From positions 25,144 through 89,143 of IMG/VR virus record IMGVR_UViG_3300024345_000775: a stretch of 64,000 bases of DNA; one strand, written 5' to 3'. The DNA is from a virus. Taxonomy: Duplodnaviria; Heunggongvirae; Uroviricota; Caudoviricetes. Made by a program: the position numbers and the translations under genes. The notes below the pieces were generated by a model. That model did not search any database, had not been told where the DNA came from, and saw nothing but the letters and a program-made list of their open reading frames with translations. This document shows, piece after piece, positions 5,272 to 59,786 of this stretch (within the stretch, counting starts at the first letter, position 1; every line of letters begins with the position of its first letter).

Positions 5272-7356
5272 TCAAAACAATGATAACTGTCTAAGAGCAA
5301 ATGGAGCAATAATTTTATTAGCTTCATTTATATAATAAGAGTAGTTTATATCGTCTGGGAATTCTTGCACTTCTTCAAGGTTATTTACAATTTTTACACC
5401 AGAAGCAGATAACATACTAGAATAGTCATCTCTTCTTTCTCTTGGTGTACCTTTGTAAAAATATTTAATAACATGTACCTTATCTCCTGGATTTTCTTCC
5501 ATTAGAACTCTAACAGGAAGTTCCATCCTTTGACCAGTTGCTTTAACCTCTATTTCTGCATATTCCTCATCAACATAAACATTGTTTACTACACACTTAT
5601 ACAAATAATAGCCTTTTGTAGATACATAATATCTGTTAATTCTGTTGATTAACTTACCATTATATTCTACAGAAAATTTCTTATCAACTTTCTGATAAGT
5701 AATAAAATCATTTATATTCCTACATGCCCTTATTGTATCTCTAATAGGTATTCCATCAGATAAATAATCATTGATGGCTTTAGGTATAATCATTGGTTGC
5801 ATACCTTTACCTAGAGTGACAGTATCAATAAAAAGACCCTTCTTTTTCAAGAAGTCATCTTTTATTTGAGATAGTGATGTATACTGTTCACCTTTCTTAT
5901 TAAAGGCTTTTCCTTCTTCAAATTCTTTCTTCTTTTGAGCATAACCTTTACTAATACCCAAATAGTCATTGATGGCATATTGATAGAAAGCTTCAAATTC
6001 TTCTGTTTCAAGTGTAAGCTTGGTTATTTCTTCCCAACCTTTTAACACTTTATCCAAAAGAGGTCTCTTATCTTTATCAATTAAATAGAGTACACCATCA
6101 GTATTTAACTGAATGATAGTAGCTCCAATTGCAATCAATCTTTCTGCAAGCATTAACAAGAACAATTGTCCATTGATTCTTATTTTCATTACAGTTTCAG
6201 GAGAGTAAACCCAACTATACTCATTCTGAAGATTACCAGTAAGTCCATTTAAACTCAACTTTAAAGTCTCATTTTTAATCTTCTTACCAGTAGCTTTAGC
6301 TTCAAGTCTTTCTGTTCTTACATCACCATATATCTCTAGGAACTGCTTCCCAAGATGAGGCGGAACTAGACCATAACTAATAACAAGAGAAGGATATAGG
6401 GAATTAACATCACTATCTAGTAAATCTTGATTTTCATTTGGAATAATAACTTCTGGTTTATTCTTTGTATGAATACCACCAACACCAACTACAACTTCTA
6501 CATTTTGTAGTAAGAAATGTTTTTCATAACCCTTTCTGCCAGGACTGACAATTAAGGATTTCATTTCTTCTAGTAATTGTTGCAACACAGGAGTGTTAAA
6601 GTTAATAACTGGAAATATAACTTTACTTAAATCAATGGCATCACATGGACTTCTAAGGTCTTTAATATCATTCCAAGACTTGCCAGTCTTTTCAAGATAC
6701 TTAACCTTTAAAATTTCCATGCCAATAGACATACCATCCTTACTTAGAACATCAACTCCATATTCTTCTTCAATACCAAGTCTAAGTTCAATCTGTTTTT
6801 TACATCTATAGAGAAGTTCTTCAGTACTCAATACATCATTGATATTATACTGAATCATATTATCTATATCTGTTACAGGAATTGGTTTTCTAAAGTCACC
6901 ATCATACTCTTGTACATTTTTATACTGCATTGTGACCTGCATTTCCTTCAAACCTACTCTTAATTTTTGAGAAAAGAGCATAGTTAAAAGGTCAAGAGTA
7001 CTAAAGTTTTTAGCATATTTCCACTTTTTCCAAGAATCAAAGTCATCTGTACCAATAATGGTGTTACTTAGATTAAATAAACTTTGACAAATCCTACTAT
7101 ATCCTAAGTTGGAAAGTGTGATTCTATAATCGAGGATATAGTTTATAATAGGGTTATCATAATGGATACAGTTATATCCACACATCAGATACTTAGTTCT
7201 CCAGAAGAACTGAATCAATTCTTTTATCTGATTTTTTCTTTCAGATATTTCAAATTTAAATATTTCTCCTGTTTCTGTATCCTTTACTACACAATGAAAA
7301 CAATTAGAAAAGACCTCAATATCATATACTGCTACTGGCTTTCCTTTTATTATCAT
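5272..7356 (-). CDS. family B DNA polymerase with N-terminal 3'-5' exonuclease
   Basis: Exo I motif YDIEVFSN; PolB motif A DVNSLYPSL; motif C-like LNTDGVLY; 694 aa. Confidence 0.8.
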   Translation of the reverse strand: MIIKGKPVAVYDIEVFSNCFHCVVKDTETGEIFKFEISERKNQIKELIQFFWRTKYLMCGYNCIHYDNPIINYILDYRITLSNLGYSRICQSLFNLSNTIIGTDDFDSWKKWKYAKNFSTLDLLTMLFSQKLRVGLKEMQVTMQYKNVQEYDGDFRKPIPVTDIDNMIQYNINDVLSTEELLYRCKKQIELRLGIEEEYGVDVLSKDGMSIGMEILKVKYLEKTGKSWNDIKDLRSPCDAIDLSKVIFPVINFNTPVLQQLLEEMKSLIVSPGRKGYEKHFLLQNVEVVVGVGGIHTKNKPEVIIPNENQDLLDSDVNSLYPSLVISYGLVPPHLGKQFLEIYGDVRTERLEAKATGKKIKNETLKLSLNGLTGNLQNEYSWVYSPETVMKIRINGQLFLLMLAERLIAIGATIIQLNTDGVLYLIDKDKRPLLDKVLKGWEEITKLTLETEEFEAFYQYAINDYLGISKGYAQKKKEFEEGKAFNKKGEQYTSLSQIKDDFLKKKGLFIDTVTLGKGMQPMIIPKAINDYLSDGIPIRDTIRACRNINDFITYQKVDKKFSVEYNGKLINRINRYYVSTKGYYLYKCVVNNVYVDEEYAEIEVKATGQRMELPVRVLMEENPGDKVHVIKYFYKGTPRERRDDYSSMLSASGVKIVNNLEEVQEFPDDINYSYYINEANKIIAPFALRQLSLF

Positions 7357-10039: not shown

Positions 10040-10660
10040 TTAAATTATCTTTATAATTATGTGTGTCCATTGATTCAGACCACCATATGGGCAGTCCATT
10101 AAGACAATTGATTCCTGGTCAAGAGCATTTCTAAAGTATTCTTCACATTCCTCATCTGTTTTATTATCTAAAACACCATCAGAAATATTTGAATAATAGT
10201 ACTTTGTTGTCCATGCATCTTTCCAGAAAAAAGGATTACCTACTGTTGGCTTTATATTGATTTGAAGGTCAGGCATATCTTTCAGATATTTCTCACAAAG
10301 AGTAATAAATAACTTTACCCTATGTTCCTTCATCATCTCAGCAAGTGGCTTATCATATGTATTTATATCAGATATAAACAATCCCCATAATACATTGAGT
10401 TTACTTACAAGACTTCTTGCAACAGTAACTAAATAATCTCTTTCACTTTCTCCATCATCAGGGAAATCTACAGTATCCCCCAATTTCAATATATGGGTTT
10501 TCTCAAACTCTTCCTGTTCTTCTGCCCACTCACTTGAACTCTCAGAAGATTCATATTCATCTAGAATAGTCTGAAGAATTATATCATGAGCTTTACCAAC
10601 AGAAAGAGAATGAGAACTACTGGAATTAGTTTCCCAGACACCTATCCTAATTTGTTTCAT
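10040..10660 (-). CDS. TNSSS-motif family protein, subfamily A (paralog 1)
   Basis: N-terminus IRIGVWETNSSSSHSLS shared with 10660-11127 and 13335-13775. Confidence 0.5.
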   Translation of the reverse strand: MKQIRIGVWETNSSSSHSLSVGKAHDIILQTILDEYESSESSSEWAEEQEEFEKTHILKLGDTVDFPDDGESERDYLVTVARSLVSKLNVLWGLFISDINTYDKPLAEMMKEHRVKLFITLCEKYLKDMPDLQINIKPTVGNPFFWKDAWTTKYYYSNISDGVLDNKTDEECEEYFRNALDQESIVLMDCPYGGLNQWTHIIIKII

Positions 10661-20743: not shown

Positions 20744-20941
20744 TCAGTCTATATCTAAATTATTTTCTTTTACCAATCTTCTTGCTATCATAAAACATAT
20801 GTTTTTAGGAATACTAATATGATTAGCAGAAGGTTTAGTATAAATGAAATGGTCTCCTTTCTTTCTGTCTAAGGTATAACCATTTTTAAGTAATATCCTT
20901 TCAAAGTCTCGAAATGATATGGATTTAGTTAGTACACTCAA
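20744..20941 (-). CDS. hicA: HicA-like (YcfA family) mRNA interferase toxin homolog
   Basis: 65 aa; FERILLKNGYTLDRKKGDHFIYTKP...ISIPKN matches the HicA consensus (GSHxxF..P, then PxH block). Confidence 0.55.
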   Translation of the reverse strand: MSVLTKSISFRDFERILLKNGYTLDRKKGDHFIYTKPSANHISIPKNICFMIARRLVKENNLDID

Positions 20942-21416
20942 GTGTTTCCAGAATTAAGTTCAATGCAGTTCCTATCATTTCATCTATGTTTTCATTTCTG
21001 GAATTACATACACTACATCTAACTGTATTCTGAATACCTTCACATTTAACACTAATCCAAACTGTACCATTAGGAACCTTACTATTACCACCAGTTTGAC
21101 CTACATACCCTGTAATTCCAACTCCTACATCTGTATTGTAAAGGTTTCTAATTGAACTAGCCATTTCTTGAGCTACTTCAAGACTAACAACATCAAAATT
21201 CTCAATTGTTTTAGGATTTACCCATAAGATTTTCTCTTTAATCTCATTAGTATAGGACACAACACCACCTTTGAGATATTGGGAAGCTCCTTCAACTCTT
21301 GCTAAAGCATTAGATATACCTCCTGCCGTACAAGATTCAGCTGTTGCTATAGTCCAGGACTTACTTTTAAGGAATTCTCCTATTCTTTTTGCAGTTAATA
21401 AATCAGCACCTTTCAT
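20925..21416 (-). CDS. pncC: CinA C-terminal domain / NMN amidohydrolase PncC
   Basis: TIATAESCTAGGISNALARVEGASQYLKGGVVSYTNEIK ... ITGYVGQTGG matches CinA_C (TAESCTGG, GGVVSYS, TGIAGP blocks). Confidence 0.7.
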   Translation of the reverse strand: MKGADLLTAKRIGEFLKSKSWTIATAESCTAGGISNALARVEGASQYLKGGVVSYTNEIKEKILWVNPKTIENFDVVSLEVAQEMASSIRNLYNTDVGVGITGYVGQTGGNSKVPNGTVWISVKCEGIQNTVRCSVCNSRNENIDEMIGTALNLILETLECTN

Positions 21417-36147: not shown

Positions 36148-36651
36148 CTATTCTTTTGGCAACTGCCAAATCTCAATAGTAATATCAAGGTTTTCAAATG
36201 CTGCTAGAACCATAGAATGTACTACATTCCAGTTAGCACCACCTCTACAAGAACTCATGAGATAAGGCATTGCAATTGTTCTTATTTTGTTTTCTTCACA
36301 GATTTTTGCCAATTTAACTAGGCACATCCACAAAGCATCATAACTTGTAGGACATCCTATACTCAAGAAAGAATGCTCTTTTTGGTATAAGTCTTGAGCA
36401 CACAAATTTGCAATGTAAGGATAGTTTGGTTCTTCCTGTCCTTCTACACATTGTTCATGCTCAACAACCTGTACAACACCTAGTTTAAGGCCACCTTGTT
36501 GCATAAGAACAGTGTATTGTTCTTGTACATAAGGCCACTTGTGTGCAATAGCAGCAGCAACTCCACTCCCCATTACACCAGCATCATTTACTTGGTGCAT
36601 GATTATCTGTGCTTCTGAATCTAATAGATTTCCTGTCCGATTAACTACAGT
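36148..36651 (-). CDS. Macro domain protein (ADP-ribose binding/processing)
   Basis: IMHQVNDAGVMGSGVAAAIAHKWP matches macro-domain NAxN...GxGVaxAI block. Start chosen at MTVVNRTG to reduce overlap with nadD. Confidence 0.7.
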   Translation of the reverse strand, partial: TVVNRTGNLLDSEAQIIMHQVNDAGVMGSGVAAAIAHKWPYVQEQYTVLMQQGGLKLGVVQVVEHEQCVEGQEEPNYPYIANLCAQDLYQKEHSFLSIGCPTSYDALWMCLVKLAKICEENKIRTIAMPYLMSSCRGGANWNVVHSMVLAAFENLDITIEIWQLPKE

Positions 36652-37273
36652 CATATAGATGATGTTTTTGAATATAATCAGCAACATATTTAGGAACAAG
36701 TGTTTTCCATTCTGGATTACACTCATCAATACATTGTCTGATATAGGTTGAACTTATATTAGAAGGAATTTCTGACATTTTAGTAATACTTCTAGCTAGA
36801 GTTAATCCCTCAGGAACTTTCATTTCAACTCCTTCTCTAGGTATTACTACAATATCAAACTGATAAAGTATGTCTTTAAAACATGCCCATTTAGTTATTT
36901 GTGCAAGACAATCTGCACCTATAGCTAAATCAATGGAATAATCAGAATACTTAAGAGATAGATGCTTTAGGAAATAGTAAGTATATTGAAATAATGGCGA
37001 TGCATTACTATCAAAGATGACTTCTACTCTTTCATCTCCTATTACTCTTTTTATAGAAGTTGCAGCCATTTCAAATCTGTCTGCAAAACACACATTAAAC
37101 TCCTTAAAAGGACTTGCAAAGCTTGGAGCTACAATTACCTTATTATAATAGTACATACCATTGGTATCTCTTCTATCTAAGAGCATTTGTATTGCTTCTA
37201 TATGTCCATTATGTATAGGATTGAAAGAACCTCCATATAAGACAGCTCTTCCTCTTATAGTTCTGATTTCCAT
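36641..37273 (-). CDS. nadD: nicotinate(-amide) mononucleotide adenylyltransferase NadD-like
   Basis: GGSFNPIHNGH (HxGH nucleotidyltransferase motif of NadD) and C-terminal ISSTYIR (SxT-IR motif). Confidence 0.8.
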   Translation of the reverse strand: MEIRTIRGRAVLYGGSFNPIHNGHIEAIQMLLDRRDTNGMYYYNKVIVAPSFASPFKEFNVCFADRFEMAATSIKRVIGDERVEVIFDSNASPLFQYTYYFLKHLSLKYSDYSIDLAIGADCLAQITKWACFKDILYQFDIVVIPREGVEMKVPEGLTLARSITKMSEIPSNISSTYIRQCIDECNPEWKTLVPKYVADYIQKHHLYDCS

Positions 37274-37842
37274 TGTTTTAAATCCTCTAAATTAACTCTT
37301 CTAAATATCTCTCCATCTGGAGATGTAATTTCAGGAAGCCAAGTTCTGAACAATATCTTAGCATTTAACTCTTCAGCAAAATGTTCAATTGCCCTCAAAC
37401 TAATATCAGTTTCAGTAACATAGTTAGCTCTATCTTCTTGTTTTAAAAGAACATATAGTCTATTACTACATTCTGAAATCCTCAATCTAGCTCTTGTATT
37501 GTGTATAAGTTCTTGTAATGCATCCCAATCTTTTTTACCTTTTGGACAAATGGAAATTCCAGTTATACAAGGTAAGGTATGTTTTTTCAAGTAATAGAGT
37601 AACTCATAACCTGAAGTATAAACATAGATATTCTTAGCAAAAGAACTTATTACATTTACAATCCCATAAAGATTATCTAGAAGAAAAGGTTCACCACCTG
37701 TTAAACAAACAGTTTCCACTGTAGACAACTCCTCTTTTGTTATAAAAGGAATACTGTCTACAGTGTAGTTGTTGTTACAGCACATAGGACACTGATTAGT
37801 GCACTTGTCTGTAAGAAATAGATGAGCTACTTTTGGGTTCAT
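37255..37842 (-). CDS. small radical SAM enzyme (paralog C)
   Basis: HLFLTDKCTNQCPMCCNNN (CX3CX2C) and LTGGEPFL; shares LTDKC-x3-C block with rSAM 12404-13351. 195 aa. Confidence 0.65.
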   Translation of the reverse strand: MNPKVAHLFLTDKCTNQCPMCCNNNYTVDSIPFITKEELSTVETVCLTGGEPFLLDNLYGIVNVISSFAKNIYVYTSGYELLYYLKKHTLPCITGISICPKGKKDWDALQELIHNTRARLRISECSNRLYVLLKQEDRANYVTETDISLRAIEHFAEELNAKILFRTWLPEITSPDGEIFRRVNLEDLKQWKSEL

Positions 37843-38315
37843 GGTACAAAACTCCTAATTAGTTCATAATGTCCAAAAGCCCAATCATACTCACCTGCTT
37901 TAGCTACTGGTATCCACATAACTTCATCTACCTCATCTGGTTCACAATGCTCTTTAGATAACATCTTCACAGCAGGTGAATCAGAACCAAGATATGCAGT
38001 AAATTTTACTGTTAAGTTTTGTCTACCTTCAGGTACATCATCTATACCTGCAAATTGAAGTTTATCAGCAGGTACAAGAACTCCTGTTTCCTCATAAACT
38101 TCTCTTATAATAGCTGTTTTGAGGGTTTCATCATAATCTAGGTATCCACAAGGACAAACCCATTTACCAACATTATCAGGACAACCTGGTCCTCTCTTAT
38201 TTGCAAGAACTAACCAATTTCCTTGACTATCTTTGGTGAAGATGAAACCTGCAACTGCTACAGACCTACTTATCCAGTAGGTTTTTCCTTCATGTTCTAC
38301 TGGAAAATTTCTCAT
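37839..38315 (-). CDS. Nudix hydrolase
   Basis: Complete Nudix box GYLDYDETLKTAIIREVYEETGV (Gx5Ex7REVxEExGV). Confidence 0.8.
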   Translation of the reverse strand: MRNFPVEHEGKTYWISRSVAVAGFIFTKDSQGNWLVLANKRGPGCPDNVGKWVCPCGYLDYDETLKTAIIREVYEETGVLVPADKLQFAGIDDVPEGRQNLTVKFTAYLGSDSPAVKMLSKEHCEPDEVDEVMWIPVAKAGEYDWAFGHYELIRSFVP

Positions 38316-39493
38316 AGACCTAATTTATAAATAGCAGTTTTTACTTCCTCATCTGCTCCCATTACTTTACCAATGTCATCAGAAATCTTTACACAATTTA
38401 CCCATTCTTGTCTTGGGTTCATTCTGCAATGCATTAACTTCATGACAATATTTCTAGGCTGTACACCTTCAATATCATTGGTAAGATTAGTGCCTATACC
38501 AAAGGAAGCTTTTATCTTTCCTTTACAGTATTCAGCAATTTGAGCAGCTTTTGGAAAATCCAAAGCATTAGAGAACACTATAGTTTTTGTGAGTGGGTTG
38601 ATACCTAACTCATCATATCTAACTAGTGCTCTCTCAACAAAGTCTTTCTCATCTCCAGAATCTTGTCTTATACCATCAAACAATTTTGCATGTTGTAAAG
38701 AAAAATTCTTGAAAAAGACTTTAGAAGTATAGGTATCAGTTAAAGCAATACCAAGATTGCCATCATAAACCTTTACCCAGTTTTTATATGCCATGTAGTT
38801 AGCCTCATTGTAACCATACATAGCACCATGAAACATTACCCATTCATGTGCTACAGTTCCAATAGGTTTCATGTCATATTTCATTGCAAGATGTACATTT
38901 GAAGTACCGACGCAGGATGTAGAGTTCTTACAAACAGCTACAACTGTATCTTGTACTTCATAACTATATCTTCTTCTGGTACCAAACTCAGAGAATTTAA
39001 ATCCTGCTTCTTCAGCAATCTTACATTTCTCTTCAGTTTTTCTACATATCTCTTGATACTGGTCAACAGTTAGAGATTTACCATAGATTTTATAGTATGT
39101 TTCTGCAACTGTATAGAGAATAGGTACCTCATACAGAGTAACTTTATAAAGTTTATCTGTAACTTCAATCTTCAACTCACCATCTTTCTCAAGGGAAAGT
39201 TTAATTAAGTTTGGATTAAAATAGAAAGACTCTAACCATTCCCAATACCACTCAGGAATGTATGGTATGTTTTGTACACACCATTGTCTCTCTGCATTAG
39301 ACAACATTCTTTCTGCCAGTCTATGTAACTCTTGTTGCAAAGCGGTTACAAATTTAGCAGTATACTCTGTTTTACCTCTATCACAGAAAACAAATGTACC
39401 CTCTGCTTCAGGAAATAACTTCATATAAGCATAGCTCATGCTAAACTTATAGAGGTCATTATCCAACATACTTGCAGGGTTTATTGCTACCAT
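38312..39493 (-). CDS. pncB: type II phosphoribosyltransferase, nicotinate PRTase (PncB)-like / possibly NAMPT-like
   Basis: N-terminus MLDNDLYKFSMSYAYMKLFP...FVFCDR parallels PncB LDTDAYKLHM...FRCR; 393 aa. Confidence 0.65.
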   Translation of the reverse strand: MVAINPASMLDNDLYKFSMSYAYMKLFPEAEGTFVFCDRGKTEYTAKFVTALQQELHRLAERMLSNAERQWCVQNIPYIPEWYWEWLESFYFNPNLIKLSLEKDGELKIEVTDKLYKVTLYEVPILYTVAETYYKIYGKSLTVDQYQEICRKTEEKCKIAEEAGFKFSEFGTRRRYSYEVQDTVVAVCKNSTSCVGTSNVHLAMKYDMKPIGTVAHEWVMFHGAMYGYNEANYMAYKNWVKVYDGNLGIALTDTYTSKVFFKNFSLQHAKLFDGIRQDSGDEKDFVERALVRYDELGINPLTKTIVFSNALDFPKAAQIAEYCKGKIKASFGIGTNLTNDIEGVQPRNIVMKLMHCRMNPRQEWVNCVKISDDIGKVMGADEEVKTAIYKLGL

Positions 39494-40371
39494 AATATCA
39501 CAACCTTTTCAATTTCATGAGAATATATCCCATTTGTTGTAAACAATTTTGTTACATTACTTAGAATGTATTGCCAATTCTCTGTATTATCTTCTATAAG
39601 TTTATTCTCACAGTGGGAAGCATATACATAAATTGGACAATTCACTTTTTCCCTGATATTTGCAATAGTCTTACAGATGGTACCACCTGAGGATAATATG
39701 TCATCAATAATCAGAACAGGAATACCTGTCTCCAATGTATCTACTCCATATAGCTCCTGGTCTTGCAAAGTGCCAGTTTTCCAGTCTCTTGATTTGTTTC
39801 CTATTACCTTTCTAAAAGGCTTTAAGATTTCAAGAGAACTGTATCTATCATAAGCACCTCTATCAGGAAATACAATTGTAACCTTACTGAATTTATCATC
39901 AAACATCCCACTATGTATAACATCAAGGGCTTCTTTCAATGATACATCAGTTGGTATTTTACACATCCTATCAACTAGAGCATCAGTTACTTTTGAATGA
40001 GTATCAAAAACTGTTACACTTTCAAACTGTAAACTGTTAATAACATTGCAGAAATACTTAAGGGTAAAGACATCTCCTCTTTCTTCTACTCTGTCCATTC
40101 TAGCATTAGGAACATACAACATTTCCAGAGATATAGTACAGTCTTGATAATTATCTCTGAGATAACCACAAACAAATATCAATGTGACTAATTCTTCATC
40201 ACAATGATACTTCCATACTATATGAAAAGCATTTACACCAAAATCTGGCATATTTATCTTTTGAGTACCATCCTGGAAATGTTCTACCTTTACAGGTATT
40301 TTGTTGACGAAAAGCATTGAATAATTATGTAGATTATAAACATTAAAACAACTAAAGTTCCAGTAATCCAC
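39487..40371 (-). CDS. ribose-phosphate pyrophosphokinase (PRPP synthetase)-like
   Basis: PRPP/ribose-binding loop VLIIDDILSSGGT; 294 aa; 7-nt overlap with the PRTase gene. Confidence 0.6.
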   Translation of the reverse strand: MDYWNFSCFNVYNLHNYSMLFVNKIPVKVEHFQDGTQKINMPDFGVNAFHIVWKYHCDEELVTLIFVCGYLRDNYQDCTISLEMLYVPNARMDRVEERGDVFTLKYFCNVINSLQFESVTVFDTHSKVTDALVDRMCKIPTDVSLKEALDVIHSGMFDDKFSKVTIVFPDRGAYDRYSSLEILKPFRKVIGNKSRDWKTGTLQDQELYGVDTLETGIPVLIIDDILSSGGTICKTIANIREKVNCPIYVYASHCENKLIEDNTENWQYILSNVTKLFTTNGIYSHEIEKVVILW

Positions 40372-40499
40372 AAAGGACTAAATACCCACCACCAATTCCA
40401 ATCAATTTTCTCTGTCACCTTAGCAATAAAGAAAGCAATTGTTAAAATAAGTGGAAGATTGAAACTTATAGTTATATTTGTTTTAGCATTTTCACTCAT
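40290..40499 (-). CDS. small membrane protein
   Basis: 69 aa, two hydrophobic helices. Confidence 0.3.
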   Translation of the reverse strand: MSENAKTNITISFNLPLILTIAFFIAKVTEKIDWNWWWVFSPLWITGTLVVLMFIIYIIIQCFSSTKYL

Positions 40500-40574
40500 A
40501 AGAAAAGAAACATTGAAGCGAAACCAACTGTTACACCTGCAATAAAACTTGCCATCTCAACAATATTGTCCATA

Positions 40575-41126
40575 TCAAATAATGTTTATGTGGCAGCTTC
40601 TCATTGTCTCAATAGCTGCCTCTTTCTTTTCAGGAGTTACACCTGCTGTCAGTCCTTCATAGACATACACTTCTGAATTAGGGTATAATGTCTTGAGAAC
40701 AAGAGCATTGGTAACAACACAAATATCAGTACAGAATCCTACTAAATAGAACTCTCTTATTTCTGACTTATCTGAACCAATTATTTGTTCCCAATTGTTA
40801 TAACCAAATGTATGTTTGTTTATAAACTTTTTAGGAACTTGACAATTGTCAAGAGCTTCCATAATATCATCTCTTAGACACCAACCAGCAGTTTCACATA
40901 TACAATGTAAAACAGGTAAATGTTTACCTTCTACTGTGACATCATAAGATTGCCTATAATGAGTATCTCTTGTAGCAAGAATATAGTCAAAACCTTTTTC
41001 AGAAATAAGCTCAGGTAATGTTTTAGCAATGTCTTTTGCAATTGCAATAGACTCTTTATTTGCCAAAACACCACCTTGTGCACAGAAATCATTTTGACAA
41101 TCAATCAAAATAAGAACCTTTCTCAT
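40575..41126 (-). CDS. pncA: nicotinamidase PncA (isochorismatase family)
   Basis: N-terminus KVLILIDCQNDFCAQGG matches PncA LLLVDLQNDFCAGG with catalytic Asp; later Cys in ICVVTNA. Confidence 0.75.
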   Translation of the reverse strand: MRKVLILIDCQNDFCAQGGVLANKESIAIAKDIAKTLPELISEKGFDYILATRDTHYRQSYDVTVEGKHLPVLHCICETAGWCLRDDIMEALDNCQVPKKFINKHTFGYNNWEQIIGSDKSEIREFYLVGFCTDICVVTNALVLKTLYPNSEVYVYEGLTAGVTPEKKEAAIETMRSCHINII

Positions 41127-41968
41127 TGGAATCTTGGGTCTTTAGCCATACCTAGAGACATTATCTCTACATTGGTAGGCTTTTCAGTTAAGTCAAACAA
41201 CATTTCAATTTCAGGCCAGAAGCAAGGCATACTTGCCATTCTATAAATCTTGAACTTGTTTGCTTCAAACTTTTTGTTAATCTTTTCAATTACTTCAGCA
41301 CTTCCTTCACCTTCTCTGATATAGGTGTCTATATCTTTGTAAGTGATTCCAAGTGTTTGTTCATCAGATGTACCAACAAGTCCATCTTCAGGAACTTTCT
41401 CAACAAGTTCAGCAGGAAGTCCAAGTTCATGTCCAATAGCTTTTACTTCTTGTACAGTAAGCATACATAATGGTGATACATCTCCTGCACTATCTCCATC
41501 AACAGTTGCATAACCAACCCAGTCTTCAGATAAGTTAGAAGTGTTAATCAATCTGCCATTATTTGCTTGTGCTACATATCTTAACATAGTCATCCTAATT
41601 CTAGGAGCTAAGTTAATTCTTGCTTGCTCAGTTACTTCATTAAGAGTATTGTGTACATTTGCCATCTTATATCTATCCTGGAATTCTTCAAAGATAGTCC
41701 CAATAGGAATAGACAGGTTCTTGATTCCAAGAGTTTCACACACTTTCTGTGCTATATTGAAATCATGTTGAACACCATTTGGCAACAATACACCTATGAC
41801 TCTTTCAGCACCTAAAGCTTTTACACAGAGTGCTGCTGCAATAGTAGAGTCTTTACCTCCTGATATACCTATTACAGCATTACATCCTGGTCCATTTTGT
41901 TCAAACCAAGATTGTAAATACTTTATAAGAGCTTCAGTTGTTTCTTTAGCTAAAAACCTATATTTCAT
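41123..41968 (-). CDS. nadE: NH3-dependent NAD+ synthetase NadE
   Basis: PP-loop GISGGKDSTIAAAL (SGGxDS), 281 aa. Confidence 0.8.
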   Translation of the reverse strand: MKYRFLAKETTEALIKYLQSWFEQNGPGCNAVIGISGGKDSTIAAALCVKALGAERVIGVLLPNGVQHDFNIAQKVCETLGIKNLSIPIGTIFEEFQDRYKMANVHNTLNEVTEQARINLAPRIRMTMLRYVAQANNGRLINTSNLSEDWVGYATVDGDSAGDVSPLCMLTVQEVKAIGHELGLPAELVEKVPEDGLVGTSDEQTLGITYKDIDTYIREGEGSAEVIEKINKKFEANKFKIYRMASMPCFWPEIEMLFDLTEKPTNVEIMSLGMAKDPRFQ

Positions 41969-42032: not shown

Positions 42033-42629
42033 TTAAAGGATAAAAGAAGCACAGGCCAGCACACCATCCTGGTAACGCTTGCTACCATTGTCCCAGAGAG
42101 CATAGTCAGCGTAACTCTGGTACACATACCAGGCATTAGACTGGTATCCTTCTCTAGCAATACTACTCCAATAATAACCATATCTGATTACTGGAATACC
42201 CATTACTAGATAGCATTTATTTATTTCCTCTAACCAATTGTTAAAGAATACCATGTTAAGTTCTATCTTACTAGGAACATACCATCTACCTTTACCAATA
42301 GAACCATAACTTAAGTTAAGTGCTCCTTGTGCAGCAGGTGAACCTTTAAAATAAGAGAAAGGTTCTCCTTGAACAGTATATTCTTTATCTTTTAGAACTT
42401 CATGCATTCTTAAAGTAGCTCCAAGACCACTGATAGTTTCCACATCAGTAATGAGTCTTTCATTACTTCCAGGAACTCCCCAAGCAGCTCTAAATGGAGG
42501 AGCAGGTGGTAATATAATACCATAATCATCCTTCATTACAAGAACTCCTTGAGGTTCTCTGTAGTCTTTCCACTGACCCCGCTCAAAGGGTTCCATATAA
42601 GTGTCTAAACAGAAAACACCACTTCTCAT
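42033..42629 (-). CDS. hypothetical protein
   Basis: 198 aa, 4-nt overlap with rSAM B. Confidence 0.45.
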   Translation of the reverse strand: MRSGVFCLDTYMEPFERGQWKDYREPQGVLVMKDDYGIILPPAPPFRAAWGVPGSNERLITDVETISGLGATLRMHEVLKDKEYTVQGEPFSYFKGSPAAQGALNLSYGSIGKGRWYVPSKIELNMVFFNNWLEEINKCYLVMGIPVIRYGYYWSSIAREGYQSNAWYVYQSYADYALWDNGSKRYQDGVLACASFIL

Positions 42630-43525
42630 ACATCTTTTTGCCAGATTGGCTCTTTGTGAAAAGAACTTTTTGTTATTTTTATAGGATTTCCCAAAATTAA
42701 ATTCTTTGAGAAACTCTCAGGAGGATACAACCAGCATTTGATTTTATTTTGTTGTTTAAGTAAGTCATAGAAATGTGCTCCAAAAGCTATTTTAGACCAA
42801 TTTAAATTTTTACTTAACAAATACTCAAATTCTTCTTGTGTATATTTGCAAACACTTCTACCAGAAGGCATAAGTGGTAATAGAACAAAATACAATATAT
42901 CATTTACATATGGATATACTTCACTGACAAATTTGTCAACAGAAGCTTTATCTGAAATTATGTAATGAATGTTAATGTTAATGTCTATACCTTTTAAATT
43001 ATCAACAGCTTTCTTCCAAGTCTTATTGATATTTTCATTCCAAGTGTTTGCACTTACAGCTACACCACCACAGTACTTCTCTGTTGCTTCCAACAATTCT
43101 TTATTGTCTTCAGAAGCTAGAGTTATACCATTGGTAGTGTAGTTAGGTACTATTCCTAAGTTATATATAGTTTGTAAGAAAGGAATGAATTCAGGATGAA
43201 TTGTTGGCTCACCTTCACTCCCTATTGCTATTTGAAAAGGTTTGGAATTTTCATCCATCTCTCCAAAGAACTTTTTTGCTTTCTCACATACATCCTTATA
43301 GAATACACCTGTATGTAATGCATTAGTATAACAGAAAGGACATTCTAGATTACACTTAGTACCAAGACTTACATCATAAAACTCAGAACAGATAGGTGGT
43401 AACTCTTGAGCTACTCCTTGTCCTAATCTTACTGTTTTTAGATTTTGCCATATAGCATTATAGTTATATTCTGAAAAATTCCTCTGTTTAATACCAAAGT
43501 GAGTAAAATCTTTCATAATTAACAA
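42626..43525 (-). CDS. radical SAM enzyme (paralog B)
   Basis: DVSLGTKCNLECPFCYTN (CX3CX2C) and GSEGEP; alignable with rSAM A over the cluster region. Confidence 0.65.
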   Translation of the reverse strand: MLIMKDFTHFGIKQRNFSEYNYNAIWQNLKTVRLGQGVAQELPPICSEFYDVSLGTKCNLECPFCYTNALHTGVFYKDVCEKAKKFFGEMDENSKPFQIAIGSEGEPTIHPEFIPFLQTIYNLGIVPNYTTNGITLASEDNKELLEATEKYCGGVAVSANTWNENINKTWKKAVDNLKGIDININIHYIISDKASVDKFVSEVYPYVNDILYFVLLPLMPSGRSVCKYTQEEFEYLLSKNLNWSKIAFGAHFYDLLKQQNKIKCWLYPPESFSKNLILGNPIKITKSSFHKEPIWQKDV

Positions 43526-43962
43526 CTGTAACTAGATACAACAGACAGATTATTTCTAATCCAATCAATTGAATGTCTTCTATTATGGTCAATTCTAATT
43601 TGTAAGAACAAACCATTTTTCTTATCAACATTACCCCTGAAATGTCTTTTAACATCATGAGCAATATCTTTATAAGAAAGTGTAGTGACTTCACATTCTG
43701 CTGCATCACCTGAAGACTCATCAAGTCCTAACTTGTATAAAGCTTCATCATATTTATCCCAGTTATTTTTACCTCTACTACAGTATTGGTTCCAAAGCTC
43801 CTCTCTCTTTTTATCATCATTATCCCAAATTTCCTGTAATTTCTTAGCAACAATAGTACTAGTAAATTCTTGTTCAGGATTTGCAAATGCTACAAAGAGT
43901 TCAGATGAACTATTGGTTATTATGTCAGATATACTTTGAATAGGTATAATGAATGTAATCAT
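43519..43962 (-). CDS. TNSSS-motif family protein, subfamily B (paralog 5)
   Basis: MITFIIPIQSISDIITNSSSELFVAF; start placed at this Met, not the longer tracked ORF. Confidence 0.5.
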   Translation of the reverse strand: MITFIIPIQSISDIITNSSSELFVAFANPEQEFTSTIVAKKLQEIWDNDDKKREELWNQYCSRGKNNWDKYDEALYKLGLDESSGDAAECEVTTLSYKDIAHDVKRHFRGNVDKKNGLFLQIRIDHNRRHSIDWIRNNLSVVSSYSC

Positions 43963-44555
43963 CCTAAATGATACCTTTCTGCTACTTCCATTAACTTTTC
44001 TTGATAATCCCAATTAGGATTCTCATCCTTAGAGAACAAAAGAATTCTGTCACCATTCTTTTCTCTTAACATAGAAAGTCCAGAATCAGTTATTTGAGGA
44101 TACCACCACATATTAAGAGAACCTCTGAATTGTTCCATATGGTGTGGTAAAAACTTCTTATAACAATCATCTGCATCTTTGTAGAAATCAGAGAATTTTA
44201 CATCAAGATTCCAATTCTTTTTAAGGAACTTAGTTATTGCAGATTTATAAGTCTTAGCTCTCTTTTTAGCATACTCAATGGGGTTTCCATCTTCTTCTCT
44301 ATAGTATGTACCATAATCCTCAATATCTGAATAAGCCATACTATAATCAAAGTAGGTTTCAACCTCTTCATCATCTGCATCTCTAAGGAGAACTGGGTCA
44401 TTATACTCAGTTGACCAATTAGGATAAATACTATCAAGAATTGCTATTACTTCTGCAACAGTATTTTTATTGTCAAAAACAAACAGTTCACTAGAACTAT
44501 TAGTAATAACATCAGAAATACTTTGAATATTAAAAACAAATAATGTCTTTTTCAT
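43959..44555 (-). CDS. TNSSS-motif family protein, subfamily B (paralog 4)
   Basis: FVFNIQSISDVITNSSSELFVF. Confidence 0.5.
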   Translation of the reverse strand: MKKTLFVFNIQSISDVITNSSSELFVFDNKNTVAEVIAILDSIYPNWSTEYNDPVLLRDADDEEVETYFDYSMAYSDIEDYGTYYREEDGNPIEYAKKRAKTYKSAITKFLKKNWNLDVKFSDFYKDADDCYKKFLPHHMEQFRGSLNMWWYPQITDSGLSMLREKNGDRILLFSKDENPNWDYQEKLMEVAERYHLG

Positions 44556-45004
44556 TTGTTTAAAAATTCTTGTACAACTTCTGCAACTAATTTGCCATCA
44601 GCATTAGGAAGTGAACCTTTTATTGTTTTGATAATGACACCCATGTTCTTCTTTACAGGCTCAAAACCATCTTGTCCAATTACATCATTGAAACATTTCA
44701 AAATGTCTTCCCTAGTTGCTTCTACTGGTAAAAACTCTTTAAGAACTTTAAGTTGTGCTTCTTCTGCCTCAACTAAATCCATTCTATTAGCCTGTTTAAA
44801 TTGCTCAATAGAATCCTCTCTTTGTTTTACCATTTTCTTGATGATTTGAATTTCTACTTCATCAGTAAATGGTTTATTAACATTTTCTTTCTGAGTTCTC
44901 CATAATAAGAAAGCAGCTTTAATTGCTCTTAAAGCCTCTTTTCTTACATTCTCATGAGACTTCATAGCCTCCATGATAAGTTTATCAATTTGATTATTTA
45001 TCAT
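44552..45004 (-). CDS. YqeY/GatB C-terminal-like domain protein
   Basis: 150 aa; pattern ALRAIKAAF...TDEVEIQIIKKMVKQREDSIEQFKQANRMDLVEAEEAQLKVLKEFLP...ADGKLVAEVVQEFL follows the YqeY/GatB_Yqey consensus. Confidence 0.6.
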   Translation of the reverse strand: MINNQIDKLIMEAMKSHENVRKEALRAIKAAFLLWRTQKENVNKPFTDEVEIQIIKKMVKQREDSIEQFKQANRMDLVEAEEAQLKVLKEFLPVEATREDILKCFNDVIGQDGFEPVKKNMGVIIKTIKGSLPNADGKLVAEVVQEFLNK

Positions 45005-46212
45005 TGCTCTGCTGCTTTAAAATTATATATAGGTTTAATAATATCTACAACATCTACAGTATCTTTGATACACTCCATGATTTCATCCATCGGTTTATAT
45101 ACCATAGGTGCTTCATCAATAGTATCTTTAGTTGCTGTAGTTGTATAAATACCTTTCATTGCTTCAATAAAGTCCTCTTCTTTAAGACTTTCTTTTGCTT
45201 TCTTTCTAGACATAAGTCTACCTGCTCCATGAGGTGCAGAATACAACCAATCAAGATTACCTTTACCTATACAGATAAGAGAACCATCTCTCATGTTAAT
45301 AGGAATAATAAGCTTTTCTCCATTAAGTGCACTCACAGCACCTTTTCTAAGAATCTTATGTGGTAAATCAATATAATTATGAATAGTTGTAAAAGATTTA
45401 TCATGTCCTTCTAAGAAATCAGAAAGAAGATTAGAAAGTCCTAAGAAATCAAGAATTCTAATAGCAATTGCTCTTCTATTACAAGAAGCATATCCTTGAC
45501 ATAATCTCATATCATTAAGATAATCCTCAAGGTCTTTACCTTCAAGATATGCCAATTCAGCATTGAAAGGTGATTGAGTTGCTTTAATTTGTGCAAGAGT
45601 AGCATTGATTTCAGACTGTCTTCCTTGTTCTTTAAGACTGTTAATAATTTCTATAAAATCAGTTCTCTTTGCTTTACAACTCTTTATAGCTTTTTCTTGA
45701 TAATACTTACATACTCTTACACCAAGATTTCTACTACCAGTATGAATTACAAGAAATTTTTCATCATTTTCATTTATATCAACTTCAATAAAATGATTAC
45801 CTCCTCCAAGACTACCAATAGACTTTAAAGCCATATCAGCATCTATAACTTCTTGACATTTAAATTGAGTAAGTGTACTAGGATGATAAAAACTTTTACC
45901 AAGAAACTGTTCATTGATATTGAATCCAGAAGGTATTTCAGTTTTAATGAAATTATCTAGAGCTGCTAAATCAATCTCAATATTACCTAAAGGAACAACC
46001 AACATTCCACATCCTATATCTACTCCAACTGTATTAGGTACAACTCTATCTTTAATACCTATTACAGTACCAATTGTACATCCTGCACCTGCATGACAAT
46101 CAGGCATTATTCTTACAGGACATTCTCCATAAGCATCAGATAAAGACATGTTTTGAATTTGTAACATTGCCTCATCTTCAACTGTTTTTGCATATATTTT
46201 TACATTTTTCAT
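45001..46212 (-). CDS. rtcB: RtcB RNA 3'-phosphate/2',3'-cyclic-phosphate ligase
   Basis: MPDCHAGAGCTIG, GGGNHFIEV and SAPHGAGR, the three RtcB metal/GTP-binding signatures; 403 aa. Confidence 0.85.
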   Translation of the reverse strand: MKNVKIYAKTVEDEAMLQIQNMSLSDAYGECPVRIMPDCHAGAGCTIGTVIGIKDRVVPNTVGVDIGCGMLVVPLGNIEIDLAALDNFIKTEIPSGFNINEQFLGKSFYHPSTLTQFKCQEVIDADMALKSIGSLGGGNHFIEVDINENDEKFLVIHTGSRNLGVRVCKYYQEKAIKSCKAKRTDFIEIINSLKEQGRQSEINATLAQIKATQSPFNAELAYLEGKDLEDYLNDMRLCQGYASCNRRAIAIRILDFLGLSNLLSDFLEGHDKSFTTIHNYIDLPHKILRKGAVSALNGEKLIIPINMRDGSLICIGKGNLDWLYSAPHGAGRLMSRKKAKESLKEEDFIEAMKGIYTTTATKDTIDEAPMVYKPMDEIMECIKDTVDVVDIIKPIYNFKAAEQ

Positions 46213-46735: not shown

Positions 46736-46780
46736 CCTCAAGGACCAGTGGACCTACTGGGAGTCGAACCCAGGTCCAAC
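46736..46780 (-). ncRNA. tRNA-like minihelix (T-arm + acceptor-like stem) followed by CUGGUCC motif; candidate tRNA-mimic / Y-RNA-like module
   Basis: Minus strand reads GGACCUGGGUUCGACUCCCAGUAGGUCCACUGGUCCUUGAGG. Canonical T-loop UUCGACU on CUGGG/CCCAG stem stacks on GGACC/GGUCC; no 5' acceptor strand or D-arm nearby. Confidence 0.35.
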
Positions 46781-47293
46781 AATATCAACTAATAGGAAAC
46801 TTTACATGCTTAGTTCTTTTTAATGTGGTTACTTTACCCACAGGGGCTAATTGGTTTGGCAACTAGCCACTCCACCACTTCATTTATACTTTGAAGAAAG
46901 TTAAATGTGTCTTTCCACAATGTCAATTATTTTCTGTTTCCAGGTATAATTACCCAGGTTATGCCATAATAAGCTAGTTTACAGTTAAGTAAGCCTAAGC
47001 TTAGGCAACCAATCTAACAGGTCTTCTTCTGCTAGCATTTATTTTTTGTACCGTAATTTAGAGCAGTACTCTCTTTGCATGTTCCCATTAATCATATAAT
47101 GCTGTCAAAACCAAATAGGCCCTAATAAGAAAGAGGATGAGGTATTAACTCCACCCTCTCCTATTGTAAAAAGGGGAGAAAAAGAGCAAAGTATTTTTCA
47201 GTTATTGGCAAACCATGACGCTAATTATAGAAGTAACTTTACACTGACATCCCCTATGGGAAAAGCAGGAGAAATAATATAGAGTGTTTAAGG

Positions 47294-59631: not shown

Positions 59632-59715
59632 TGTAGTTTATATACTTTTTAGTAATATAGATTCTGTGAGCACATATCTGTTTTGTTTGTGAGTCTAACC
59701 CCACTCTCACCAAAG

Positions 59716-59786
59716 GAGTATATGAAGGACTTGAACCTCCGACCGCTACATCTCTGTAGTGCTCTACCAACTGAGCTAATATACTC
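59716..59786 (-). ncRNA. tRNA-like RNA lacking an anticodon loop (anticodon arm replaced by 5-bp stem + GAGA tetraloop)
   Basis: Minus strand 5' G-AGTATAT-TA-GCTC-AGTTGGTA-GAGC-A-CTACA-GAGA-TGTAG-CGGTC-GGAGG-TTCAAGT-CCTTC-ATATACT-C 3'. Acceptor, D-arm and T-arm are textbook; region 27-43 is a 14-nt tetraloop hairpin instead of the 17-nt anticodon arm. Confidence 0.5.

Follow-up and report, generated by a model that had tools for sequence, protein, structure and literature searches.

A chimeric gene cluster of a crAss-like phage that may rebuild NAD+ from nicotinamide and ADP-ribose

The stretch of phage DNA analyzed here (64,000 nucleotides; hereafter the window) carries on its minus strand a cluster of NAD+-related genes at positions 36148-41968, and our analysis confirms its presence. 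These limits, given in an initial annotation, coincide exactly with ORF boundaries, namely the stop of Macro and the start of NadE. The cluster had been described as eight co-oriented, overlapping genes; the genes are indeed co-directional and the eight families are present, but there are nine genes, the additional one encoding a 69-aa protein, and one pair does not overlap. Most adjacent genes overlap by 4-28 nt according to their ORF coordinates, the lone exception being a 75-nt gap downstream of PncA. In order of transcription, followed by two unlinked genes, the features are:

41123..41968, minus strand: NadE, NH3-dependent NAD+ synthetase, 281 aa (PF02540, TIGR00552, phrog_11189)
40575..41126, minus strand: PncA-like nicotinamidase, 183 aa (PF00857)
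40290..40499, minus strand: 69-aa protein with two TM segments (PF10269, phrog_1374)
39487..40317, minus strand: Prs-like pyrophosphokinase of the phage Adps clade, 276 aa from ATG (phrog_619)
38312..39493, minus strand: PncB, nicotinate phosphoribosyltransferase, 393 aa (TIGR01514, NF003704)
37839..38315, minus strand: Nudix hydrolase, 158 aa (PF00293)
37255..37842, minus strand: small radical-SAM protein, 195 aa (CxxxCxxC and GGE motifs)
36641..37273, minus strand: NadD, nicotinate-mononucleotide adenylyltransferase, 210 aa (TIGR00482, PF01467)
36148..36654, minus strand: Macro-domain protein, 168 aa from ATG (PF01661, phrog_335)
20925..21416, minus strand: PncC, CinA-type NMN deamidase, unlinked accessory (PF02464)
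14772..15335, minus strand: NADAR-domain protein, unlinked (PF08719)

Profile searches with the Isochorismatase, NAPRTase, CTP_transf_like, NAD_synthase, NUDIX, Macro, CinA and NADAR models all gave matches. The eight family assignments made initially thus hold, that of the Prs-like protein through phrog_619 (185.6 bits), as do those of the PncC and NADAR proteins elsewhere in the window (156.6 and 113.6 bits, respectively). Gene calls on independent contigs agree with the overlapping layout, and a scan of the cluster revealed no convincing internal terminator. An identical PncB occurs in four other samples, surrounded by the same cluster genes as far as the contigs extend, and gene order is preserved in a relative that is approximately 80% identical, indicating that the arrangement is not due to chance. 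The phage DNA polymerase is 50-54% identical to its counterpart in crAss-like phages of roughly 100 kb; by this measure the window phage is crAss-like and not jumbo, and its hosts are probably Bacteroidales.

The gene content allows the Preiss-Handler route proposed initially (PncA, PncB, NadD, NadE), and the catalytic motifs of these enzymes are intact. NadE matches PF02540 (161 bits), TIGR00552 (155.4 bits versus a cutoff of 63.65) and phrog_11189 (186 bits), displays the P-loop GISGGKDST, and is predicted to be a single-domain enzyme that converts NaAD to NAD+. The PncA-like protein matches PF00857 (59.7 bits) and falls below the NCBIfam PncA equivalog cutoff (34.8 versus 174); among solved structures it is closest to the nicotinamidases 1ILW and 3PL1. 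PncA structures assign an Asp-Lys-Cys triad and an Asp/His/His metal site to the P. horikoshii enzyme, and in the alignment each of these residues has an identical counterpart in the window protein, which is predicted to convert nicotinamide to nicotinate. PncB matches NAPRTase and NAPRTase_N, as well as TIGR01514 (408 bits versus 269.55) and NF003704 (417.7 bits versus 379), and aligns with PDB 2IM5 at 379 bits. A full-length alignment with E. coli PncB gives 34% identity and shows the FGTRRR, GTSN and AHEW motifs to be conserved. Numerous PncB homologues among database proteins share 55-62% identity with it; those with a named source, one of which is an Alloprevotella MAG, are all called nicotinate phosphoribosyltransferase. 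Sequence thus identifies it as a host-type (Bacteroidales-like) enzyme that should form NaMN from nicotinate and PRPP; its full-length identity of 55-62% to cellular PncB is the reason why PRPP is expected to be required. NadD, with its GGSFNPIHNGH and SNISSTYIR motifs, matches TIGR00482 (114.7 bits versus 112.45) and PF01467 (46.3 bits), and is predicted to convert NaMN to NaAD.

The published NARP1/NARP1-AP systems combine Adps and Namat and may also include the Macro phosphatase Adpp (bioRxiv 10.1101/2024.02.11.579819; 10.64898/2026.01.28.702374). The operon is also related to two further module types. The first, the widespread PncA-Adps-Namat-(Macro)-NadE module found in uncultured phages and in Phage Phass-1 (OQ749652.1), holds the nearest relatives of the window Prs-like protein, NadE, PncA and Macro, and shares the gene order around the transferase slot. 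In all 78 of these loci the nicotinamide-binding Asp of Namat is replaced by Ala or Ser (A/S modules), whereas it remains Asp or Glu in 62 plain NARP1 loci, none of which (0/62) has PncA or NadE nearby; for this reason, the A/S modules point to an apparently undescribed route of NAD+ reconstitution via nicotinate and NaAD. Unlike the window, the A/S modules encode this Namat-type transferase, and no NadD, Nudix or PncB gene lies within 10 kb of them. The exact Namat slot is filled in the window by a PncB-Nudix-rSAM-NadD block, which would therefore replace an NaAD-making step. The second type, PncA-Nudix-PncB-rSAM-NadE-NadD, is present in three crAss-like loci and provides the nearest phage relatives of the window PncB, Nudix and radical-SAM proteins, but contains neither a Prs-like nor a Macro gene, and its PncA, NadE and NadD are distant from those of the window (20-42 bits). 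The window NadE scores 200-250 bits against NadE of the A/S modules versus only 30-38 bits against that of the PncB-type modules. Judged by the relatives of its genes, the operon is a chimera of the two module types.

The Prs-like protein had been taken as a source of PRPP, which is not established: it fails the PRPP-synthetase model TIGR01251 (68.6 bits versus a cutoff of 113) and groups with the Adps enzymes of phages. Its top GenBank phage matches are NARP1 'Prs' genes adjoining Namat (33-36% identity, E=1e-36), while solved PRPP synthetases are matched at E=1e-8 only, and a neighbor-joining tree places it within the Adps clade as the sister of the A/S clade. The C-terminal helices of PRPS are missing, both termini are shortened as in Adps (an alternative GTG start lies at 40371), and 8/12 Adps-clade-specific residues are retained, including Phe84 in the RF-loop region adjoining the ARMDR motif. 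In ICP1 Adps, Phe92 in the RF loop stacks on the ADPR adenine, and Cys215 and Phe221 contact donor ATP (PMC13586617). Phe84 lies in the loop region that holds Phe92, with no residue equivalence implied. The PP loop, DDILSSGGTICK, is similar to that of E. coli PRPS, and the donor-loop signature positions of Adps carry PRPS-like or other non-Adps residues. At two of them, paired with ICP1 Cys215/Phe221 by motif, with the ICP1 sequence itself outside the alignment, Leu208 and Ile214 stand in place of Cys and Phe; in PRPP synthetases the first position is Ile and the second is Leu or Ile. None of the catalytic Lys, His and Asp residues is lost. The Prs-like family is linked to NARP1-type counter-defence, its characterised Adps members being pyrophosphokinases of ADP-ribose and not of ribose-5-phosphate, from which SpbetaL1 Adps gave no product (bioRxiv 10.1101/2024.02.11.579819); the window enzyme could therefore make PRPP only after a reversion.

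The Nudix protein (PF00293, 59.8 bits) has a complete Nudix box, GYLDYDETLKTAIIREVYEETGV, and bears a weak resemblance to the corresponding domain in NadM-type NMNAT/ADPRase. Family comparison established no ADPRase-specific signature, and its assignment is generic; we propose it as a candidate pyrophosphatase of ADP-ribose (or ADPR-PP). Its homologues (115-145 bits) cluster with PncB in the three crAss-like modules, two of which place Nudix immediately upstream of PncB. The Macro protein (alternative TTG start at 36729) matches PF01661 (26.8 bits versus a cutoff of 22) and the phrog_335 'phosphatase' family (101.7 bits). In the PDB it is matched best by DarG macro domains and BT1257, and by Poa1p only at E of about 0.09. 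About half of the A/S modules have a Macro homologue flanked by Namat and NadE, and crAss-like NARP1 operons have one flanked by Namat and Adps. The general role in ADP-ribose handling first suggested for the Macro protein can be sharpened by a direct published analogue, the NARP1-associated Adpp of NARP1-AP, a proven ADPR-1''-phosphate phosphatase (bioRxiv 10.64898/2026.01.28.702374), and by analogy it is a candidate for the same activity. The radical-SAM protein, counted initially as part of the NAD+ toolkit, is at most a putative member of it, and profile searches matched it to no specific family despite its two motifs. The 69-aa protein (PF10269, 28.5 bits; phrog_1374, 55.6 bits) carries the motif W-N/S-W-W-x-V-F-S-P-L-W, and its homologues adjoin four different kinds of phage NAD modules.

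Our preferred reading, to which we give slightly less than an even chance, is that the operon serves to regenerate NAD+ out of nicotinamide and ADP-ribose, the two products of NADase-type defences, through deamidated Preiss-Handler intermediates. PncA would convert nicotinamide to nicotinate, while Macro would release ADP-ribose from ADPR-1''-phosphate or a similar derivative. Nudix would split ADP-ribose into AMP and ribose-5-phosphate, which the Prs-like enzyme would pyrophosphorylate to PRPP. The host-type PncB would then join nicotinate and PRPP into NaMN, NadD would adenylylate it to NaAD, and NadE would amidate the latter to NAD+; PncC could channel NMN into the same route. We infer each substrate, the order of the Nudix and Prs-like steps, and the role in counter-defence; the strong resistance to NADase-based immunity expected initially is likewise a prediction. 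This reading is favoured because family assignments and curated cutoffs support the enzymes, the genes are overlapping and conserved as a cluster with no convincing terminator, Leu208/Ile214 are PRPS-like with the catalytic Lys, His and Asp preserved, PncB is close to cellular enzymes, Nudix homologues cluster with PncB in modules that have no Prs-like gene, the block with PncB fills the Namat slot, and Macro homologues lie inside NARP1 operons, with the NARP1-associated Adpp being a proven phosphatase. Counting against it are the nesting of the Prs-like protein in the Adps clade with its 8/12 residues, the inactivity of SpbetaL1 Adps on ribose-5-phosphate, the generic Nudix, a Macro nearer to DarG-type domains than to Poa1p, and the radical-SAM and 69-aa membrane proteins, which stand outside all steps.

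A possible but more doubtful reading has the Prs-like protein as a true Adps that forms ADPR-PP from ADP-ribose and ATP; Nudix would cleave ADPR-PP to PRPP and AMP, and PncB, NadD and NadE would finish, so that Nudix, PncB and NadD jointly stand in for the single step of a nicotinate-using Namat. The clade position, the NARP1 matches, the shortened termini, the clade-specific residues and the occupied Namat slot all speak for it, and NudC converts ADPR-PP to PRPP in vitro (bioRxiv 10.1101/2024.02.11.579819), but ADPR-PP use in vivo is known for no Nudix enzyme. Leu208 and Ile214 also disagree with it, as does the Nudix-PncB linkage in modules with no Adps gene, which argues that the Nudix step is independent of an Adps product.

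NADAR and DarG undo DarT1 and DarT2 modifications. It is unlikely that the operon is an auxiliary module of general NAD+ supply for replication in Bacteroidales, and not of counter-defence, in which the Prs-like protein merely adds PRPP, and Nudix and Macro serve unrelated ends such as nucleotide housecleaning or, with NADAR, the reversal of DarT-type DNA ADP-ribosylation. The NADAR gene, the DarG-like Macro and the generic Nudix fit this reading, and pncB-nadD-nadE clusters of gut jumbo phages are so interpreted (PMC11662467). However, Macro and Nudix homologues are recurrently embedded in NAD modules, the Prs-like protein comes from a family associated with NARP1-type counter-defence, and Macro lacks the DarT-binding half of DarG (168 aa versus 338 model positions; 69 bits, far under the cutoff of 250). 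It is very improbable that PncB itself takes ADPR-PP to make NaAD directly, leaving NadD for the PncC branch only: PncB does follow and overlap the Adps-clade gene, as Namat does in NARP1, and Namat descended from a PRPP-using Nampt (PMC12774641), but PncB resembles ordinary bacterial PncB with no insertion for an adenine clamp, and NadD and Nudix, which arrived with it, would be superfluous.

Like NARP1/NARP1-AP, the window operon joins an Adps-clade pyrophosphokinase, a Macro and a pyridine phosphoribosyl-type transferase, and would be expected to turn nicotinamide and ADP-ribose into NAD+; it differs in its PncB in place of Namat, its route via nicotinate, NaMN and NaAD that requires PncA, NadD and NadE, its additional Nudix, and a PP loop without the signature Cys and Phe. 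NARP2 (Nampt and the bifunctional Nmnat/Nudix of Vibrio phage KVP40) and NARP3 (PnuC and NadR; PMC13464706) likewise represent phage-encoded multi-step NAD+ resynthesis with PRPP-type chemistry, and NARP2 also includes a Nudix domain, but both proceed through amidated intermediates (NMN or NR) and have no deamidase, NaAD amidation or Adps-clade enzyme. A survey of 50,697 GenBank phage records gives 13 with a PncB-type gene, 35 with NadE, 12 with NadD and 7 with this type of PncA. The toolkit, initially called unusually complete, is thus rare, but its completeness alone is not new, because PMC11662467 reports Preiss-Handler clusters in gut 'NAD-jumbo phages', such as pncB-nadD-nadE in Kuafu_71, whose clade has predicted Bacteroidota hosts. 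The window shares these clustered genes on a gut phage genome; it differs in its crAss-like phage and in the added Adps-clade enzyme, Macro, Nudix and PncA, and neither Prs-like/Adps, Macro nor ADP-ribose recycling is described for the jumbo clusters in the passages of that paper considered here. The kind of system is known, and what has not yet been described is its combination of nicotinate enzymes of host type with phage enzymes that would recycle ADP-ribose.

The NAD+ cluster of the window consists of nine co-directional ORFs, which run from 41968 to 36148 on the minus strand in the order NadE, PncA, a 69-aa membrane protein, Prs-like, PncB, Nudix, a small radical-SAM protein, NadD and Macro. 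The genes overlap by 4–28 nt, with a single gap of 75 nt located 3' of PncA. The window is AT-rich (GC ~33%), and nearly all of its long ORFs lie on the minus strand. Contigs from four other samples carry an identical PncB together with the same cluster genes, within the reach of each contig, and the same gene order is retained in a lineage that is ~80% identical, indicating that the observation is real and that the cluster is conserved. The hybrid arrangement was found only in these two places, the window lineage and its 80% relative. A megablast comparison of the cluster to GenBank phages gave no match, IMG/VR pattern searches with the radical-SAM and NadD proteins returned zero relatives, and the same search with PncB recovered only four distant loci in which the other cluster genes were absent; PncB-type genes occur in 13 of 50,697 GenBank phage records. 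Scans for sigma-70 promoters and terminators, which employed models not made for Bacteroidales promoters, performed no better than on shuffled sequence.

The families that the initial annotation had assigned to the cluster genes were borne out by profile searches. PncB scored 408 bits against TIGR01514 (cutoff 269.55), is 34% identical to E. coli PncB and carries the FGTRRR, GTSN and AHEW motifs. It is 55–62% identical to many PncB homologues in protein databases; those with named sources are all called nicotinate phosphoribosyltransferase, and one is from an Alloprevotella MAG. The nearest solved structure is PDB 2IM5 (379 bits), the Porphyromonas gingivalis enzyme. Since PncB is an ordinary Bacteroidales-type protein without extra elements, its direct use of ADPR-PP, the product of the ADP-ribose pyrophosphokinase Adps, was rejected. 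NadE lies far above the curated cutoff (155.4 bits against TIGR00552, cutoff 63.65) and has the SGGxDS P-loop in the form GISGGKDST. NadD passes its curated model marginally (TIGR00482, 114.7 bits versus 112.45) and carries HxGH and ISSTxxR motifs, in keeping with a predicted NaMN adenylyltransferase. PncA exceeds the Pfam cutoff for the isochorismatase fold (PF00857, 59.7 bits) and did not reach that of the NCBIfam equivalog (34.8 versus 174); when aligned with 1ILW, it has the same residues at the Asp-Lys-Cys and Asp/His/His positions, which make up the nicotinamidase triad and metal site in PncA structures. Nudix (PF00293, 59.8 bits) and Macro (PF01661) are also above their Pfam cutoffs, and PncC (CinA domain) and NADAR were confirmed elsewhere in the window.

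The DNA polymerase of the window phage is 50–54% identical to those of crAss-like phages of human faeces of 96–104 kb, and a jumbo-phage identity was dropped on this basis; the contigs bearing the identical PncB belong at most to the 50–200 kb class. The similarities of the DNA polymerase and of PncB, including 2IM5 as the closest structure, point to a crAss-like phage with a Bacteroidales host, and probably not to a jumbo phage.

Many bacterial antiphage systems, among them Thoeris, DSR, SIR2-HerA and aRES, end in depletion of NAD+, and three pathways by which phages rebuild it have been published. NARP1, composed of Namat and of Adps, which pyrophosphorylates ADP-ribose rather than ribose-5-phosphate, and NARP2 are established reconstitution pathways (bioRxiv 10.1101/2024.02.11.579819); in NARP1-AP, NARP1 is extended by Adpp, a Macro-domain phosphatase acting on ADPR-1''-phosphate (bioRxiv 10.64898/2026.01.28.702374), and NARP3 consists of PnuC and NadR (PMC13464706). 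In addition, PMC11662467 reports pncB-nadD-nadE clusters in gut jumbo phages ('NAD-jumbo phage' cluster), and the window phage likewise has these three genes clustered. A phage Preiss-Handler cluster, the nicotinate route via NaMN and NaAD, is hence not new in itself. The system is of a known type; what is new is an Adps-clade enzyme and a Macro protein joined to host-type PncA, PncB, NadD and NadE, with a Nudix.

The interpretation of the initial annotation was mostly right as to the cluster, but its Prs-like protein is, as judged from sequence, not an ordinary Prs. It does not reach the cutoff of the PRPP-synthetase model TIGR01251 (68.6 versus 113 bits), while scoring 185.6 bits against phrog_619, and solved PRPS structures match it at E=1e-8 or weaker. 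The best GenBank phage matches are 'Prs' genes (33–36% identity, E=1e-36), and in the contexts examined, those of Bacillus phage Tsamsa and crAss-like cr85_1, a Namat-type gene adjoins 'Prs', which is the NARP1 arrangement. When aligned, E. coli Prs exceeds it by ~21 N-terminal and ~40 C-terminal residues; Prs-like is devoid of the full-length PRPS architecture (N-terminal beta-alpha unit and C-terminal helices) and stops shortly past the last core strand, as do the Tsamsa and cr85_1 Adps. The C-terminal alpha11-alpha12 region of PRPS is thus missing from it, as it is from Adps (PMC13586617). A neighbor-joining tree rooted on E. coli Prs, its only cellular outgroup, placed Prs-like inside a phage clade, apart from cellular Prs and above cr85_1 and Tsamsa. 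A Namat gene is found in the immediate vicinity for 97% of the Adps clade (bioRxiv 10.1101/2024.02.11.579819); the transferase adjacent to Prs-like is of PncB type (NAPRTase_N and TIGR01514), not Namat.

The closest relatives of Prs-like are encoded at 80 IMG/VR loci, whose neighbouring genes we annotated by phmmer. Nearly all carry PncA, an Adps-like protein, a Namat-type protein and NadE, in this order, with Macro in about half; NadD, Nudix and PncB were not found within 10 kb in any of the 80. Asp215 of SpbetaL1 Namat forms a hydrogen bond with nicotinamide (PMC12774641), and the equivalent Asp219 of human NAMPT sets substrate specificity, which is switched by D219S, according to PMC7096376 and PMC4919578, each of which cites Khan et al. 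2006. This Asp is replaced in 78/78 Namat-type proteins of the modules, by Ala in 68 loci and Ser in 10 (hereafter A/S modules), and the matching PncB motif, G-T-S-N, has Ser at that position. PncA and NadE are both present in 76 of the 78; the exceptions are one locus cut at the Prs-like gene (L069) and one where NadE was not detected (L019). In the control set, the 80 loci closest to cr85_1 Adps, all 59 Namat genes have Glu at the Asp position (E-type), PncA or NadE is nearby in none, and Macro is present in 12 loci. The Namat proteins of Tsamsa and of the fetched locus L067 have Asp, and PncA and NadE are co-encoded in 0/62 loci whose Namat has Asp or Glu. The two-class comparison covered fetched loci L012, L016–L066, L068–L075 and L077–L095 versus L106–L185, plus L104 and L105 (Phage Phass-1, OQ749652.1).

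The annotated Phass-1 module holds nicotinamidase, 'Prs', 'NAMPT' (with Ala at the position), a protein that we read as HAD-like, and NadE. The aromatic Namat clamp motif is retained in its Namat-like protein, WIC39687.1, and other A/S-type proteins retain the G-S-F part of the clamp. The protein read as HAD-like (139 aa, L105 2784–3203; DxDxT-type motif, FDFDDT) occupies the slot that Macro has in other A/S modules, which fits a phosphatase role for this slot.

There is strong comparative evidence that the A/S modules encode a route that uses nicotinate and goes through NaAD, a chemistry that we infer, and the two Namat classes suggest a nicotinate/NaAD version of NARP1. In such a route, PncA would convert nicotinamide to nicotinate, Adps would make ADPR-PP, the Ala/Ser Namat variant would combine nicotinate and ADPR-PP directly into NaAD, and NadE would convert NaAD to NAD+. 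We regard it as a tentative possibility, somewhat short of an even chance, that uncultured, mostly gut phages carry this as a widespread and apparently undescribed fourth NAD+ reconstitution pathway ('deamidated NARP1'), of which the window operon is a derivative. Host-type PncB, Nudix and NadD would then replace the nicotinate ADPR-transferase, with the Adps-clade enzyme of the window drifting back to PRPP synthesis. No paper connecting Adps or Namat with NadE, nicotinamidase or NaAD was found, which, given incomplete literature coverage, is absence of evidence only.

A second module type came to light through homologues of the radical-SAM protein: phage contigs with PncA, Nudix, PncB, radical-SAM, NadE and NadD, from which Prs-like and Macro are absent. 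The window PncB (460–480 bits), Nudix (115–145 bits) and radical-SAM protein (155–162 bits) resemble these Prs-less, PncB-type modules, while NadE (200–250 bits), PncA (90–150 bits), Prs-like (130–177 bits) and Macro (40–90 bits) resemble the A/S modules. Because the bit scores divide the genes between the two module types, the operon is, on this measure, a chimera of split origin. The Namat slot of the A/S modules is taken in the window by the PncB-Nudix-radical-SAM-NadD block.

Within the window operon, PncB would need PRPP, and Nudix and Prs-like could jointly yield it from ADP-ribose, in either order; PncC would send NMN into the same deamidated path. If Nudix acts first, ADP-ribose would give ribose-5-phosphate and then PRPP, an order that we prefer cautiously, at only just under even probability. 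It fits because Nudix-PncB linkage also exists where a Prs-like gene is absent from the module, and because Leu and Ile in the PP loop of Prs-like match the PRPP-synthetase pattern. The PP-loop/ribose-5-phosphate loop type DD-x-I-x-[TS]-G-G-T-[LI] is present in Prs-like (DDILSSGGTICK), E. coli Prs (DDMIDTGGTLCK) and archaeal PRPSs (DDIISTGGTI). ICP1 Adps contacts the donor ATP in this loop through Cys215 and Phe221 (PMC13586617); we took these residues from the text of that paper and assigned the equivalent positions by motif, and the initial 50 kb of the Vibrio phage ICP1 genome do not contain its Adps gene. Among E-type loci the signature Cys is conserved in 58/59 and the Phe in 59/59; in the A/S-type set the counts are 64/80 and 61/80, respectively. 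Leu208 and Ile214 stand at these positions in Prs-like. In the reverse order, which we consider less likely, Prs-like would act as Adps and convert ADP-ribose to ADPR-PP, which Nudix would then cleave to PRPP. This fits the position of Prs-like within the phage Adps clade, as well as its 8 retained residues out of 12 that are clade-specific, and NudC turns ADPR-PP into PRPP in vitro (bioRxiv 10.1101/2024.02.11.579819). The Nudix itself has its Nudix box and matches NadM-Nudix models weakly (23–25 bits), its other matches being generic MutT-like structures.

Macro, the last gene of the operon, is most likely an Adpp-like phosphatase, by analogy with its homologues (58–65 bits), which lie within NARP1 operons, between Namat and Adps in crAss-like loci; its phage homologues are annotated as Poa1p-like. 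A less probable anti-DarT role, possibly exerted jointly with NADAR, has in its favor that the sequence is nearer to DarG-type macro domains (1e-7) than to Poa1p (6LFQ, E ~0.09). NADAR and DarG-like macro domains are the hydrolase types that reverse DNA ADP-ribosylation by DarT1 and DarT2. Both are encoded in the window (NADAR at 14772–15335 and the macro domain at 36148–36654, minus strand) and could thus form a counter-defence against DarTG. DarG antitoxin identity was rejected, the score being 69.3 bits versus a cutoff of 250 and a C-terminal DarT-binding domain being absent; the 168-aa protein covers only positions 4–147 of the 338-position DarG profile.

The radical-SAM protein carries cluster-binding and SAM-binding motifs and matched no specific family in profile searches. 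Its predicted model (pLDDT 87) matched generic radical-SAM cores only, and genomic context is inconsistent among homologues. The remaining operon member is the small membrane protein:

40290–40499, minus strand: 69-aa protein with two TM segments and the motif W[SN]WWxVFSPLW

It is found next to phage NAD modules of four different types (fetched loci L011, L041, L101, L134, L138–L140, L142–L144, L146, L148, L150 and L151) and may be an unrecognised accessory component.

Further features of the window are the following:

46746–47122, minus strand: tmRNA (Rfam RF00023, 93 bits, full length)
45001–46212, 44552–45004, 11108–11869 and 17908–19524, minus strand: RNA-repair-like set
10040–10660, 10660–11127 and 13335–13775, minus strand: first small paralog family, N-terminal Ser-rich GVWETNSSSxHS
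43519–44013 and 43959–44555, minus strand: second small paralog family, N-terminal Ser-rich IQSISD[VI]ITNSSSELFV
48572–50452, minus strand: SPFH/Band_7 protein of 626 aa with a long Ala/Glu/Lys-rich tail

ARAGORN reads the tmRNA tag peptide as ASRRRPVRLVA. Twelve tRNA genes are dispersed on the coding strand (16534–59785, minus strand); the anticodon of the one at 59715–59785 is unreadable by ARAGORN, and Rfam still scores it as tRNA (53 bits). RtcB ligase, YqeY, a 'Swiss Army Knife' RNA-repair HAD domain and a Ro60-like protein, the latter with weak, below-cutoff matches to TROVE and vWA domains, together look like a putative RNA repair set. Near the first paralog family lies an ORF with a CxxxCxxC motif and no family match (12404–13351), and the second family adjoins a radical-SAM ORF (42626–43525); the Ser-rich paralogs and these neighbours may be substrate-enzyme pairs. 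In the fetched PncB-type module L098, a Band_7 gene (6514–7338) is located directly 3' of NadD.

The window operon shows that crAss-like phages of Bacteroidales can combine the host nicotinate pathway and phage ADP-ribose enzymes into a predicted complete route, and it offers a natural experiment on how Adps and PRPS enzymes evolve their choice of substrate. Of greatest value is the Asp-to-Ala/Ser dichotomy of Namat, which predicts a new reaction, nicotinate + ADPR-PP to NaAD. These findings supply new enzymes for the synthesis of NAD+ analogues, and would help in predicting the gut phages that evade NADase-based defence.
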